A stretch of DNA of 61,750 nt, filler included, from Chthonomonadaceae bacterium (GTDB lineage Bacteria > Armatimonadota > Chthonomonadetes > Chthonomonadales > Chthonomonadaceae), in assembly GCA_035650735.1 (NCBI GenBank). It is 3 parts of 3 records of this genome, joined end to end, with 100 filler letters (N's around TTAATTAATTAA, not from the genome) between each part and the next. Parts side by side here need not be neighbours in the genome. Positions count along the whole stretch, not along the records: positions 30,931 to 50,398 come from DASRGZ010000068.1; 2 more parts are not named here. One strand, given 5' to 3'. A program made the position numbers and the translations under genes. The notes beneath the pieces are model-generated. The model was not told where the DNA came from. It made no database searches and saw only the letters and a list, made by a program, of their open reading frames with translations. Each line of letters begins with the position of its first letter. Within the stretch, counting starts at the first letter, position 1. This document shows positions 7,428 to 50,398 of the stretch, in pieces.

Positions 7428-7795
7428 ATGATCAGGCCTGAAAACGAGCACACGGAGAACAAGCGCATGCTGAACGAGTGGAAGGGGCCGTGATCTCCCT
7501 GGCCGCCTTCGCCACGGCCCGCGGGGGCGGCAGGAGGTCTGGAACCCGGCCTCCCTGCCGTACGATATGCCGGTCGAGGTCCTGTGCGCGAGGCACCCAT
7601 CTCGCCCGCGCAACCGTAAGCTGGCGGATGCCCTCTTCCGGGCCGGGCTCATCGAGCAGTGGGGCACGGGCACGATGCGGATACGGGCGGCTTGTGAAGC
7701 GCGAGGATTGCCCGAGCCAAAGTTCGAACTAAGGATGGGCTGTATGAGGGTCACGCTGTACTCGGACCCGGAGTCGTGCCATAGAGGGAGGGAAC
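7428..7795 (+). pseudogene. Internally deleted AlbA_2/Schlafen + HATPase_c_4 (RecG-C-like) gene remnant
   Basis: MIRPENEHTENKR...(frameshift)AVISLAAFATARGG resembles an AlbA_2 N-terminus and is joined directly to EVWNPASLPYDMPVEVL...HPSRPRNRKLADALFRAGLIEQWGTG, typical of HATPase_c_4. Confidence 0.7.
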
Positions 7796-7867
7796 TGCCG
7801 GACTAGGGCTCGAACCTAGAACCTGCTGATCCAGAGTCAGCCGCTCTGCCAATTGAGCTATCCGGCA
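7795..7867 (-). tRNA. tRNA-Gln (anticodon CTG), CCA not encoded
   Basis: Reverse complement folds: acceptor TGCCGGA/TCCGGCA, D arm GCTC/GAGC, anticodon arm GCTGA-CTCTGGA-TCAGC, T arm CTAGG-TTCGAGC-CCTAG, discriminator G. Confidence 0.97.
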
Positions 7868-18131: not shown

Positions 18132-19037
18132 TTATCCGATCTGGCCGTGCGCGGCGTGCAGGGTGTTGCGCAGCAGCATGGCGATAGTCATCGGGCCGAC
18201 GCCGCCGGGAACAGGCGTGATGTAGGAGGCTACCCGCGCTGCCGTTTCGAACTCCACATCCCCCACGTCGCCGGCACGGCCCTCCACCCGGTTGTAACCG
18301 GCGTCAATCACCACCGCGCCCGGCTTAATCATGTCGCCCTTGATGAGCTCGGCGCGGCCCACCGCCGCCACCAGAATATCGGCCCGGCGCGTGACCTCGG
18401 CCAGATTGGGCGTGCGCGAGTGGCAGATGGTGACGGTGGCGTTGCGGTTAAGCAGCAGCATCGCCACCGGCTTGCCCAGGATGATGCTGCGGCCCACCAC
18501 GACCGCCGACTTGCCTTCTATAGGCAGGCCATATCGGTCCATCAATTCGATGATGCCGGCAGGAGTGCAGGAGGGAAAGGCTGGCTCGCCGTTGATGAGT
18601 CCACCCAGGCTCATTCGGCTGATCCCGTCCACGTCTTTGGCGGGCGAGACGCGGTCCAGGACGGCGGGCTCATGGAGGTGCTTGGGCAGTGGGTGCTGCA
18701 CCAGGATGCCGCTGATGGCGGGGTCTGCATTCAGCCGCTCGACCAGTTCTTCCGCCTCCACCTGCGTCGCGTCCTGGCCCAGCCGATGGATAGAGGACTC
18801 CATGCCAACCCACTTGCACGCCTTCTGCTTCATGGCTACGTAGGTCTCGGAGGCCGGATTGTTGCCGATCAGGACGGCAGCCAGGTGCGGAGTCGGCCCG
18901 CCCGCCGCTTTGCGCTGCTTCACCCCCTCCGCGACCTCCGCGCGAATGGCCCGCGCCGTCGCCGTCCCGTCCAGCAAAAGGGCGCCGCCTTCGACGGCAT
19001 ATTTGTTCCCTTGTTCCTCGTTCTGCTGCCTGGTCAT
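18132..19037 (-). CDS. folD: Bifunctional methylenetetrahydrofolate dehydrogenase/cyclohydrolase
   Basis: [54 protein letters not shown]. Confidence 0.97.
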
Positions 19038-19082
19038 AGATATAGATCCAACGCTCCTATCTCGTTTTCAAGCAGGAACCAA

Positions 19083-19447
19083 CCTAACCCCCCGTCCCCC
19101 TTCCCTCATAGGGAAGGGGGGACCCGGCTTCGCCTCTCCCGGCAGGCTAAACCCTGCCGCTGTGGGGCCTACGGCCCGCTGCCTGCCTGCGCAGGCAGCG
19201 GAAAATCCCGGCTTCTGCTCTCCCCTCCCCTGTTGTTGGGGATAGCCAGGCGGAGGGCTGTCGCAAGGCAGAGCCGTGTCGCAAGGTGTCGCTAGGCGGA
19301 GCCGGAGGCCGTAACTCCGGCGACCCTTGCAGTGGGCCGAACCATGGCAGGCCCGACCCTGGCAGTCCATTGTAGCCCCGACCCTGGCAGTGGGGACAGG
19401 GGGTGGGGACCTCCCCTCTCCTTCTCAAGGAGAGGGGCCGGGGGTGC
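19083..19447. repeat. Composite cluster of REP-like palindromes containing nested 43-bp hairpin elements
   Basis: CCCCCTTCCCT-cat-AGGGAAGGGGG; GGCAGGCTAAACCCTGCC unit; CCCCTCTCCTT-ctc-AAGGAGAGGGG; repeated GCNAGGCRGAG and CGACCCTKGCAGT motifs at 19245-19391. Confidence 0.85.
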
Positions 19448-19472
19448 GGGCCAGATCCGGGAGGTTCGCGGG

Positions 19473-20552
19473 TTACGCTTCCTGCGCTTCCAGTACCGGG
19501 ACTTCCGGCAGATCCACCACTTCGTCGCGCTCGTCGGCTTCGATGTCCCCGTCGGTCGGCGCGGCGGGCGCCAGTTTGTCGCCTACCTGGGCCGCCAGCG
19601 CGCCGAGCACCCCGTTGACGAAACGCCCTGACTCGGCGGTGCTGTACTTCTTGGCAAGCTCAATCGCCTCATTGATGGAGGCGCCGGTCGGAATGCCGGG
19701 CAGATAAAGCATCTCAAAGGCGGCGATCCGCAGGATATTGCGATCCACGGCGACCTGCCGCTCCAGCCGCCAGCCGGAGGAGAGCGCCGCCAGGCGTCGA
19801 TCCAGCATGTTCCGATGCTCCAACACGCCGGTAACCAGCTTGTAAGTGAAGGCAGCGGTGCGCAGCCAGTCGCCGGTCTGTTTCTGAACGATGTCGCCCA
19901 CTTTGTTCCAACGCGCCGTCGAGGCCCGGTTGAACTCCTCGCGCCGCGCCCGCAGATAGTCCTGCACCGCAACCGGCCCGGCAGCCATCGGCATCCCAAC
20001 AGCGAGCTCCTTGCTAAAGGCGAGCGCGGTCTTGCGCATTTCCGGCTCCAGCAGGCGTGGCAGCTCCTCGCGCGCCCGCTCGGCAAATTGCAGGAACCGC
20101 GCGCGCTCCTCCGGCGTCAGCGCCGCGATCTGGACGGACAGTCCATCGGACGGGATAACGGCCTGCGGTATCAGCGCCGAATCCGACAGCGGGGTCAGCA
20201 GATACGCCGGCTGGAGCGGCACGCCCGGCGCCCGGTTGCGGAAGGCACGCTCCAGGCGCACCTCCTGCCAGTAGGGAGCCTCGGCAAAGAGCCGTCCGAG
20301 AAACTGCGTCACGGCCCGCTCCAGCGGCAGGCGCAGGGTGGGCAGCGTATCGCGCAGCGTGCGCGTGATGAAATCCAGGCTGTTCTCTTCGGCATGGGAG
20401 CCGCTGGCTGACCGCGAGCCGCGATGCACAAACTCCATGCGTAGCTGTTCCAGCGCGGTCTCCAGCGCCTCTTGCGGCTCCGGCTTGCCGACATCTATCT
20501 GATAGAGAATTTTCAAGGCCCATTCGCGGGCGAGGCGGCGGTAACTGACCAT
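19473..20552 (-). CDS. nusB: Transcription antitermination factor NusB with a large internal insertion
   Basis: RRLAREWALKILYQ N-terminus; C-terminal WRLERQVAVDRNILRIAAFEM...INEAIELAKKYSTAESGRFVNGVLG; lies next to folD. Confidence 0.9.
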   Translation of the reverse strand: MVSYRRLAREWALKILYQIDVGKPEPQEALETALEQLRMEFVHRGSRSASGSHAEENSLDFITRTLRDTLPTLRLPLERAVTQFLGRLFAEAPYWQEVRLERAFRNRAPGVPLQPAYLLTPLSDSALIPQAVIPSDGLSVQIAALTPEERARFLQFAERAREELPRLLEPEMRKTALAFSKELAVGMPMAAGPVAVQDYLRARREEFNRASTARWNKVGDIVQKQTGDWLRTAAFTYKLVTGVLEHRNMLDRRLAALSSGWRLERQVAVDRNILRIAAFEMLYLPGIPTGASINEAIELAKKYSTAESGRFVNGVLGALAAQVGDKLAPAAPTDGDIEADERDEVVDLPEVPVLEAQEA

Positions 20553-48830: not shown

Positions 48831-49000
48831 AGGCTGAACCCTGCCGCTGTGGAGCCTTCGGCTCGTTGACTGCTAGGGTCGGCGCTCAACGGTTCGCGCC
48901 TCCGCCTAGCGACACCTACGCGGGCAAAACACCTTTCTCGCCCACGTAGGTGGGCGACGGGCGCTTTGCGCCCCACAGCGGCAGGGTTTAGCCTGCCGGG
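48831..49000. repeat. Inverted doublet of REP-like elements; left copy carries a 43-bp hairpin insertion at 48868-48913
   Basis: AGGCTGAACCCTGCCGCTGTGG ... CCACAGCGGCAGGGTTTAGCCT; alignment with the 19144 and 21170 copies reveals the insertion. Confidence 0.88.
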
Positions 49001-49843: not shown

Positions 49844-50161
49844 TTATCCCTCTTCGTGTGTCTGTTCCTGCCAGCGGCGGCGCGGCTCGCCGAGCAGTGT
49901 GGCGGCCTCCGCGCGCAGCAGGCGGCGCAACTGCAATTTCGCCCGGTGTATTCGGCCTTCGATGGTTGTGACCGGCACATTCAAGAACGCAGCGATCTCC
50001 TCATACGAGGATTGCCCCCAGATCCGCATGAGCAACGTGAGTCGATTCCCTTCCGGGAGCGCCATGAGCGCCTGCCTCCAGGCCCGATACTCCTCCCTGA
50101 CAAGGACGACCTCCAGCGGGCGCTGCGCCGGATCGGCCAGGAAGCGCGCTTCCGCTGTAGG
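49844..50161 (-). pseudogene. ECF sigma factor region 4 fragment; N-terminal half replaced by a repeat block at the contig end
   Basis: PLEVVLVREEYRAWRQALMALPEGNRLTLLMRIWGQSSYEEIAAFLNVPVTTIEGRIHRAKLQLR. Confidence 0.75.
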
Positions 50162-50163
50162 CG

Positions 50164-50398
50164 CGACCCTTGCAGTCCGTTGTAGGCCCGACCCTGGCAG
50201 TGGGGGCCGGGGGGTGGGGTCAGCATCCTGGCGGACGCTGCCTCTCGCCAGAGGTTCCGTCCGCCAGTCGCAAGGCAGAGGCGCGAGTGTCGCCAGGCGG
50301 AGATCGCCAGGCAGAGCCGCGAACCGTTGAGCGGCGTCCCTGGCAGTCGAGCGTGCGTAGTTCCGACCCTAGCAGTCGTAGCGCCGTCCCTTGCAGTC
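50164..50398. repeat. Stack of nested 43-bp hairpin elements plus REP half and a separate hairpin
   Basis: Three left arms (50270, 50292, 50306) followed by three right arms ending AGTC (50348, 50377, 50398); two further right arms at 50164-50201. Confidence 0.88.

Follow-up and report, generated by a model that had tools for sequence, protein, structure and literature searches.

A new REP-like family of small palindromic repeats with strong self-nesting in a Chthonomonadaceae genome

Nested insertions are known in general for miniature inverted-repeat transposable elements (MITEs), and the small dispersed repeats (SDRs) of Nostoc and its relatives, ascribed to Elhai et al. 2008, are reportedly gene-less, apparently mobile repeats of 21-27 nt that are embedded in other repeats or hairpins and have no known enzyme. 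Here, we analysed a 61,750-nt stretch of DNA (the window) from an uncultured soil bacterium of the Chthonomonadaceae (Armatimonadota), in which a structured unit of about 43 nt occurs inside copies of itself at positions 50267-50398. The window joins three contigs by N spacers (C66, 1-30830; C68, 30931-50398; C75, 50499-61750), and its source genome, hereafter G000, comprises 6.52 Mb in 224 contigs with 63% G+C. The closest described systems are palindromic repeats. In the parts of PMC3333891 and PMC3116915 that deal with them, the repetitive extragenic palindromic (REP) sequences, bacterial interspersed mosaic elements (BIMEs) and REPINs linked to REP-associated tyrosine transposases (RAYTs) are imperfect, gene-less, extragenic palindromes of high copy number with a conserved stem irregularity and tetranucleotide, and the unit resembles them in all these respects. 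The sections of PMC3733652 on CGTC-tagged REPs (CGTC-1 to -4; Di Nocera, De Gregorio & Rocco 2013) likewise portray small, extragenic, high-copy palindromes without a flanking transposase gene, as is our unit, and mention that some REP families sit inside other palindromes. The unit represents a new REP-like palindromic repeat family with strong self-nesting. The reading that we favour, and that we hold to be probable, is that of a gene-less, REP-like miniature palindromic repeat whose copies have been added at G(N)A loops or 3' of AGG(T), through self-nesting combined with block copying.

The unit was searched as a left half, GCNAGGCRGAG (L), and a right half, CGWCCCTNGCAGT (R). The window contained 7 left halves and 9 right halves, compared with 0.86 and 0.02 expected from shuffles. 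At 50267-50398, left halves started at 50270, 50292 and 50306 and right halves at 50335, 50364 and 50385, in nested order, so that the tiny structured unit nested three deep that the first-pass annotation had described was indeed present. The layers, as read from the sequence, were the following.

50303..50347, plus strand, innermost intact unit: ATC GCCAGG CAGAG CCGC GAACCGTTGA GCGG CGTC CCTGGC AGT
50289..50376, plus strand, middle unit, split by the inner one
50289-50302, plus strand, left part of the middle unit: GTC GCCAGG CGGAG
50348-50376, plus strand, right part of the middle unit: C GAGCGTGCGTA GTTC CGAC CCTAGC AGT
50267..50397, plus strand, outer unit, split by the middle one
50267-50288, plus strand, left part of the outer unit: GTC GCAAGG CAGAG GCGC GAG T
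50377-50397, plus strand, right part of the outer unit: CGTA GCGC CGTC CCTTGC AGT

This stack forms the last 132 bases of contig C68. The inner stem-loop of the intact unit (CCGCGAACCGTTGAGCGG) was the commonest type, found in 65 of the 391 simple units of G000, and the unit folded as a two-tier hairpin with z-scores of -2.27 as DNA and -2.78 as RNA. Pairing had been said to be imperfect in some copies, which applied to the middle layer, whose outer stem is mismatched (GCCAGG / CCTAGC).

Throughout G000 the unit reads (T)GTC-GCNAGG-CRGAG-inner stem-loop-inner stem'-CGWC-CCTNGC-AGT and forms a two-tier hairpin on one strand, with an outer stem of 6 bp (GCNAGG/CCTNGC), an inner stem of 4-7 bp whose sequence is free and a loop of 7-11 nt. 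Between the tiers lies an internal loop that is asymmetric and conserved, with CRGAG facing CGWC, and both ends, the 5' head (T)GTC and the 3' tail AGT, are unpaired. Among the 391 simple units the head was GTC in 228, in agreement with the earlier remark that GTC usually precedes the unit, ATC in 80, GTG in 36 and CTC in 25, while the base after the AGT tail was C in 190 and G in 157. Non-redundant flanks (235) had a T before the head in 128 cases, with GG before that base; among the combinations listed, TGTC occupied positions -4 to -1 in 95 of them, GGTC, GATC, CCTC and TGTG also occurred, and CGTC was rare. The left flank took the form ..GG(T/G)(G/A)TC.

Covariation was measured by pair statistics with shuffled-partner controls. 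The internal bulge proved conserved, as proposed, and its two variable bases covaried (CGGAG-CGAC in 277, CAGAG-CGTC in 57 and CCGAG-CGTC in 19 of the 391 units). The proposal that the stems covary was borne out for the inner stem but not for the outer one. In the class with a GAA loop, the inner 4-bp stem was fully paired in 181 of 204 units through 10 different paired sequences, including CCGC/GCGG, GCGC/GCGC, GGCC/GGCC, GCCC/GGGC, GGGC/GCCC, GTTC/GAAC and CGCC/GGCG, and these changes are genuine compensatory variation. In the outer stem, the pair N/N' was A-G in 110 units, A-T in 67, C-G in 66 and T-A in 45, and a C at N' on the right side was almost never seen (2 cases); covariation was weak here because the free bases N and N' are only partly complementary. 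G-T wobbles at N/N' numbered 35 on the written strand versus 6 on the other, and at the nest junction, too, a T-G pair falls on the written strand. The wobble excess is a modest hint that the written strand is the folded one. Single units folded as the two-tier hairpin moderately better than shuffles (z from -0.5 to -2.3 as DNA and from -1.7 to -2.8 as RNA). A loop segment of intact units, CGAA-CCATTGCAG, resembles the right half CGAC-CCTNGCAG with one extra base, and the apex of the unit may be the relic of an older, half-deleted layer.

When set beside the CGTC-tagged REPs as depicted in those sections of PMC3733652, the unit has a similar succession of head, stem, loop, stem and tail and an unpaired 3-nt tail as they do, and its unpaired 5' tetranucleotide head may be comparable to theirs (CGTC, TGTC or CCTC there; mostly TGTC, GGTC, GATC or CCTC here, with CGTC rare). 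The CGTC-tagged REPs differ in having a plain stem of 8-9 bp that starts with A-T pairs, a 4-5-nt loop, a CCA tail and head-to-head dimers, whereas the unit is two-tiered, starts with G-C, has a 7-11-nt loop and an AGT tail, and occurs in nested stacks. Neither 'Armatimonadetes' nor 'Chthonomonas' gave a match in the main text of PMC3733652. REP and REPIN sequences carry GTAG (GYAG) 5' of the hairpin foot in the portions of PMC3333891 and PMC3116915 that describe them, while the head of the unit is NGTC and GCAG is found at its 3' end only, partly inside the stem. They form mainly inverted doublets and their copies flank a single-copy RAYT gene, whereas the unit nests in one orientation, flanked none of 21 Y1 loci, and lives in a genome whose Y1 proteins score below the RAYT cut-off. 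G000 does resemble REP and REPIN hosts in possessing Y1 genes with inverted arms, each with about 100 dispersed copies; nevertheless, the unit is a guest inside these REPIN-like arms and not an arm itself. MITEs such as Nezha, NEMIS/Correia and RUP are, like the unit, non-autonomous, structured, high-copy and intergenic, but they measure 70-300 nt, whereas the unit has 43 nt and neither terminal inverted repeats matching an insertion sequence (IS) nor a target-site duplication. The SDRs of Nostoc differ in phylum and sequence, and the unit is larger and two-tiered.

The unit is neither a MITE nor an attC site, it belongs to no Rfam family, and it lacks the defining features of REP/RAYT and CGTC-1 to -4 elements. 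The stacks had no Rfam match, at the gathering threshold or at E<=1, and neither plasmid nor phage collections contained a match to the unit, in line with the initial statement that no described family was recognised. Our literature search, which did not cover the text of Elhai et al. 2008, the likeliest precedent, found no description of systematic physical self-nesting of REP-like elements, and it found no account of repeats in Chthonomonas. A likeness to integron attC sites had been suggested, and the units could in principle be such sites or another substrate of a tyrosine recombinase, since the unit agrees with them in general architecture, having two stems, a spacer that is asymmetric and unpaired, and a terminal loop of variable sequence. 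Nothing beyond the architecture fitted: the RYYYAAC/GTTRRRY boxes (R-box motifs) are absent from the unit, no cassette open reading frames (ORFs) or cassette arrays lie between units (the integrase gene itself was not searched for), and the units are nested instead of tandem, with about 900 of them scattered in intergenic spacers. We consider this explanation extremely improbable.

We then determined the abundance and arrangement of the unit in G000, with the reversed genome as control. The exact whole-unit pattern AGGCRGAG-N12-22-CGWCCCTNGCAGT gave 343 matches versus 0 in the control, and 521 when one mismatch was allowed. Exact half-site tokens amounted to 1067 L and 1029 R, compared with 209 and 144 in the reversed genome, from which we estimated roughly 850-900 units. 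Out of 419 runs of left halves followed by right halves, 175 were single (1,1) and 244 multi-layer, with up to 5 left halves; 72 were balanced as (2,2) and 26 as (3,3). The order LRLR occurred in 4 cases genome-wide, no direct head-to-tail junction between units existed in the assembly, a single inverted token was found within a stack, and inverted neighbours were rare. These run counts and the lack of tandem junctions indicate that same-orientation nesting is the rule.

Among 40 relatives the unit was found in three: G001, from the same genus (2 exact units with different inner hairpins), G010, which belongs to another genus (4 units), and G019 (1 unit), the latter being an LRR stack at a contig end with the same nesting grammar as in G000. 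In 400 other Armatimonadota genomes there were four single one-mismatch matches without structure, about the level of the reversed control. Thus, the further copies that the first-pass annotation had called for were plentiful in G000 and present in three relatives, but structured copies were absent from these 400 genomes; the family is abundant in G000 alone. Six matches outside the Chthonomonadaceae, among the matches listed, came without left-half context and inner stem and look like chance.

The nesting might have been created by short-read assembly through short repeats at contig ends. The stack at 50267-50398 does lie at a contig end, 74 of the 448 contig ends in G000 have a stack within 300 nt, which makes stacks one main cause of assembly breaks, and the Logan contigs break at every stack. 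The organism is covered about 12x in 6 runs from 3 studies (soil 2017, mine 2024); in four runs, the Logan contigs stop at stacks and do not bridge 50267-50398. However, 952 of 1045 token clusters in G000 are over 300 nt away from any contig end, and the four-level stack at 19242-19391 is mid-contig. In addition, three other metagenome assemblies contained 51 type-A nests inside contigs of 6-147 kb, all 100% identical to G000. Six nest loci were recovered from two assemblies each; G000 may have come from one of these assemblies, and none of them is evidently long-read. The presence of nests within the contigs of other assemblies makes an artefact of the G000 assembly alone unlikely, and the like grammar of the G019 stack and the regularity of the grammar itself, too great for random mis-joins, also argue against mis-assembly, which we judge to be barely credible as an explanation.

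The flanks of the stacks are themselves repeats. Three host families (F1-F3) are G-rich palindromes, for example CCCCTCCCCTGTTCTTGGGG..GGGGNNNGGGGGTGGGG, and three (F4-F6) are the inverted arms of Y1 transposase genes, each arm carrying a central mini-hairpin GGCC-GNA-GGCC. Comparison of filled and empty versions of the same sites revealed reproducible junctions. At the unit's own apex, NNNC-GAA-CCRTTG.. became NNNT-[GTC..AGT]-CCRTTG.. in 115 of 265 spacers between successive left halves (L-L spacers), and the uninterrupted form was present in 156 copies in G000. The outer layer of 50267-50398 followed the change from GCGCGAG-CAAG-CGTAGCGC (10 copies) to GCGCGAG-T[GTC..AGT]-CGTAGCGC; its empty form, in which 50287 is joined to 50377 with 'CAAG' between, occurred at multi-copy depth in the Logan contigs of all 4 runs. 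The middle layer corresponded to CGGAG-GAA-CGAGCG turning into CGGAG-[ATC..AGT]-CGAGCG (41 of 265 L-L spacers), with 14 uninterrupted copies of CGGAG-GAAC-GAGCG.. in G000.

Similar pairs were found in the host repeats. In F1, GGGG-(GA/A/G)-GGGG changed to GGGG-[ATC or GTC..AGT]-GGGG, with many of both states among the 80 anchors, out of 107, that were inspected. The 194 F4 anchors, GGCC-G(C/T)A-GGCC, were divided into 84 empty, 48 filled and 62 other variants, and 30 of 96 F5 anchors (CAG-GA-CGC) were filled. G010 has 4 dispersed copies of a Y1 arm that read TTGGC-T GTC..AGT-GGCC, where the empty form found next to Y1 genes (L103, L110) reads TTGGCC-GAA-GGCC; this change from C-GAA to T-GTC..AGT is identical to that of the own-apex junction of the G000 units. 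A second class of sites lay just 3' of ..AGG(T), in truncated left halves (GTCGCNAGGT), GCGTAGGT and CCCTCGTAGG. In total, units occupied at least six unrelated kinds of host context, each with empty counterparts, and they were located mostly in the loops of other units or of other small repeats; insertion was orientation-specific and target bases appeared to be lost.

The first-pass annotation had raised a GTC duplication, and no target-site duplication was found at unit junctions; 2-5 nt appeared to be replaced instead. By comparison, IS200/IS605-derived palindrome-associated elements insert strand-specifically 3' of a fixed tetra- or pentanucleotide, with no duplication and with a preference for the lagging-strand template. 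Empty sites of the plain-insertion type (NNNTGTCC.., GGAGATCGAGCG and GAGT..GTAGCGC) gave 1, 3 and 0 matches in G000, none of them in an element context, and therefore either the unit takes the place of 2-5 nt or the empty paralogues do not represent the sites as they were before insertion. The circle-type junction that had been predicted, CCTNGCAGTSGCNAGG, had 0 matches in the assembly, a unit circle being defined as ..CCTNGCAGT joined to (C/G)GCNAGG...

To what extent the stacks arose by repeated insertion could be judged from the units that are interrupted. In 78 interrupted outer units, the split stem was fully paired in 39, compared with a shuffle mean of 18.7 (maximum 30), and N/N' was pairable in 49, compared with a mean of 33.2 (maximum 44). 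Moreover, the 56 two-level stacks comprised 33 different combinations of outer and inner unit, the layers usually belonging to different subfamilies. Matching outer halves in so many combinations indicate that intact units were repeatedly split by the arrival of another kind of unit. Block copying was also visible: the 128-nt three-level composite of 50267-50398 exists in 10 near-identical copies in G000 that differ by few bases, 4 of them at contig ends. All 10 have the left flank ..GTCCGC(C/T)AGTC and lie in an F5 context, and the 8 not cut by a contig end have the right flank CGC(T/C)TGGC... Hence, the stack at 50267-50398 was copied as a block and is not the product of three local insertions. 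Composite spacers such as CCGTGTCGCAAGGTGTC also recur 20 times among the L-L spacers. Repeated insertion and block copying thus both appear to operate in this family.

An alternative is that the units are not individually mobile today and are only modules of REPIN-like repeats, a few ancient nestings having been followed by block amplification and by gene conversion, unequal recombination or slippage between layers. The 128-nt composite found 10 times in one host context and the composite spacer CCGTGTCGCAAGGTGTC found 20 times are what this alternative expects, as are the frequent unbalanced stacks among the 419 runs, the truncated left halves and orphan right halves, the lack of polymorphism seen between assemblies and the resemblance of the loop segment CGAA-CCATTGCAG to the right half CGAC-CCTNGCAG. 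It does not account well for the 33 combinations in 56 two-level stacks with outer halves that still match, nor for layers that usually come from different subfamilies and are therefore not local duplications. The identical junction in the unit apex and in the Y1-arm loop of another genus, and the six or more unrelated host contexts, each with empty counterparts, also speak against it. We regard this alternative as unlikely, and we infer that single units do move, not blocks alone.

Under the preferred reading, of a nesting and block-copied miniature repeat, copies would enter in one fixed orientation at two kinds of site. The first would be short loops or bulges of purine type, G(N)A, with G/C closing pairs (C-GAA, C-GCA-G, C-GTA-G, G-GA-G), where the unit would take the place of 2-5 loop bases, and the second would lie just 3' of ..AGG(T). 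Targets would be offered by the unit's own apex (NNNC-GAA-CC) and bulge, by G-rich palindromes and by the GGCC-GNA-GGCC mini-hairpin of the Y1 arms and of their dispersed copies, which number roughly 100 per arm family. As each new unit would supply a fresh target, stacks would grow from the apex inwards as L^nR^n 'onions'; finished stacks would then be copied as blocks with their host repeat, 50267-50398 being one such copy. Of all this, the abundance, the anatomy, the nesting grammar, the junction rules, the filled and empty sites among paralogues and orthologues and the block amplification are direct observations. The unit is probably mobilised as single-stranded hairpin DNA. A more specific version, which we find doubtful, holds that the unit is a hyperparasite of REPIN-like repeats: in a loop replacement on folded single-stranded DNA, a type of reaction not described so far, a G(N)A mini-loop with G/C closing pairs would be cut out and the hairpin ligated into the gap in fixed polarity, by an off-target Y1 or some other enzyme. 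With a target at its own apex, such an element would be an obligate self-nester that builds hairpin onions.

No enzyme gene was found inside or beside the unit in G000, as the first-pass annotation had noted for the window. The Y1 (PF01797) transposase genes whose arms serve as host repeats are IS200-like. G000 has two such genes and G001 has four, with more in G019 and G010; each is located between inverted arms of 55-76 nt that lie 420-600 nt apart.

G000 C166:80092-80433 and C166:12640-12873 (L019, L020), arm-flanked Y1 genes
G001 C482, C321, C344 and C118; G019 C79; G010 C546 and C544, arm-flanked Y1 genes

Every well-resolved Y1 gene was flanked by arms, each arm carries three hairpins, and the arms are host repeat families of the unit. 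The F5 arms flank the gene at G000 C166:80092-80433. In G000, the arms of its two Y1 genes have 82-109 and 94-101 dispersed copies of at least 40 nt, and the arm of G001 C482 (F4) has 127. Inverted arms around a Y1 gene correspond to the REPtron/TIRtron layout reported for RAYT-like genes in the relevant parts of PMC3733652 and PMC3333891. According to PMC3333891, the E. coli TnpA-REP protein depends on an irregularity in the stem and on a 5' tetranucleotide; it cleaves DNA when single-stranded only, between C and T with low specificity, and performs strand transfer. The loop of the F4 Y1 arm that is occupied by units reads GTAG, and the right half of the unit contains CCTNGC beside the hypervariable base N'; a strand exchange between CC and TNGC would explain the frequent N/N' mismatch. 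The location of units in Y1-arm loops, their orientation-specific integration and the analogy with TnpA-REP led us to propose, tentatively, that a Y1 transposase acting in trans might mobilise the units. The earlier suggestion of a substrate for HUH/RAYT transposases thus gains circumstantial support from the loops of Y1-flanking arms, but none of the Y1 genes examined is itself flanked by the unit.

Two other sources of mobility were tried and rejected. A screen for an autonomous version (left half, gene, right half) produced 32 pairs, and the two inspected enclosed housekeeping genes such as argS. A multi-copy IS as mobiliser was not supported, since the assembly has no IS-sized repeat; an IS may be missing from a binned genome, and this result is not evidence of absence. 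Repeats of at least 400 bp were limited to one pair (C130/C157).

Several observations weigh against the preferred reading or its Y1 component. Across G000, G001, G010 and G019, 21 Y1 loci were examined and not one had the unit at its flanks, and no unit lay within 3 kb of the G000 Y1 genes. Both of these genes look damaged from their sequences, one protein having H-V-P without the second His of the HUH motif and the other gene being split by a frameshift at a G-run (GGGGG). Their proteins score as IS200-type (75.7 and 58.4 bits) and reach 32 and 27 bits against the RAYT profile REP_Tyr_transpos, whose cut-off is 80. Y1 genes also occur in 31 of the 41 relatives, most of which have no unit. 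Filled sites always look like the replacement of 2-5 nt, which known transposase chemistry does not predict. Whole stacks as single-stranded DNA were no more stable than shuffles (z of -0.96 and -0.73), and stacks showed no bias with respect to gene strand in G000 or to local GC skew (p = 0.58), the latter being a weak proxy in a draft genome. The 51 loci identical across assemblies reveal no ongoing movement. Unbalanced runs were common among the 419 ((1,2) 69, (2,3) 19, (3,2) 16, (1,3) 16 and (2,1) 15), truncated left halves and orphan right halves exist, and large composites were amplified as blocks, so that part of the nesting is due to inheritance and recombination.

The hairpins could also be kept because they serve the host, as RNA stabilisers or terminators or as DNA sites for a nucleoid or topology protein, roles credited to REPs in parts of PMC3733652. 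Judged from crude ORF calls, 352 of 370 stacks were outside genes, and convergent spacers were mildly enriched over divergent ones (72 versus 43, against a background of 710 and 665); the structural conservation of the inner stems would likewise suit a host function. On the other hand, the orientation of stacks to co-directional neighbouring genes was random (105 same, 101 opposite), the hairpin is followed by G-runs and not by a T-run, and the element hardly occurs outside G000 (4 of 41 including G000, with nothing structured in 400 others). Furthermore, an equivalent gene pair in G001 lies about 35 nt apart without the element. A host service is, in our opinion, a very unlikely reason for the maintenance of the unit.

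How REP families without a transposase spread is an open question, for which G000 offers a rich natural experiment, with about 900 copies and, over six or more kinds of target, hundreds of sites that are filled or empty. The junction rule, by which a G(N)A loop is replaced by the unit, is reproducible in two genera and is accompanied by a physical association with Y1 arms; together with the filled and empty sites, this opens both the enzyme and the reaction to tests that use oligonucleotides and recombinant Y1 proteins. Specialists are likely to be surprised most by the self-targeting of the junction rule and by the Y1-arm association, and both can be tested. If true, loop replacement would add a new way of transposing for the orphan REP families without a transposase, the CGTC class among them. 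At the genome scale, short repeats form about 1060 islands in G000 with a median of 114 nt and make up 3.3% of the assembly; they have inflated intergenic spacers and split probable operons.

The window contained further copies of the unit, as follows, together with the host context of the stack at 50267-50398.

19242..19391, plus strand, mid-contig stack in an F1-type G-rich palindrome: four left halves, of which GTCGCAAGGT is truncated, and four right halves, of which CCATGGCAG is degenerate
48869..48913, minus strand, single unit in an F4-type repeat: GTC GCTAGG CGGAG GCGC GAACCGTTGA GCGC CGAC CCTAGC AGT
50164..50201, plus strand, two right halves without left halves: CGACCCTTGCAGT CCGTTGTAGGCC CGACCCTGGCAGT
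50202..50266, plus strand, host context: G-rich palindrome remnant GGGGGCCGGGGGGTGGGGTC, then the left part of the F5 repeat (..GGCGGACGC..GTTCCGTCCGCCAG), in which the composite is embedded

The stack at 19242-19391 lies within a spacer of about 490 nt (18990-19482) between two minus-strand genes. In G001 the orthologous spacer measures about 35 nt, and in G010 and G019 about 55-90 nt, so that the contrast between empty and filled orthologous sites that had been sought was found. At least four small repeats take up the spacer in G000, namely a CCCCCTTCCCT hairpin, an empty F4, the F1 palindrome with its stack and a further hairpin. The palindromes at 19040-19470 include the empty F4 arm (..CTGTGGGGCCTACGGCCCGCTGCC..) and a CCCCTCTCCTT-CTC-AAGGAGAGGGG hairpin, and the region is a probable operon junction expanded by palindromic repeats.

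At the second locus, a contig of single-copy depth in 3 of 4 runs skips 75 nt (48863 joined to 48939), including the unit at 48869-48913; it could represent an empty allele or a paralogous F4 copy. The orphan right halves at 50164 begin 4 bases after a TAG at 50158-50160, the possible stop codon of a gene. After them, within 50164-50222, comes the right arm, rich in G, of an F1-type palindrome, and the left side of this array seems to have been lost or overwritten. Elsewhere in the window, a tRNA gene at 7795-7867 on the minus strand was the sole Rfam match at gathering level.

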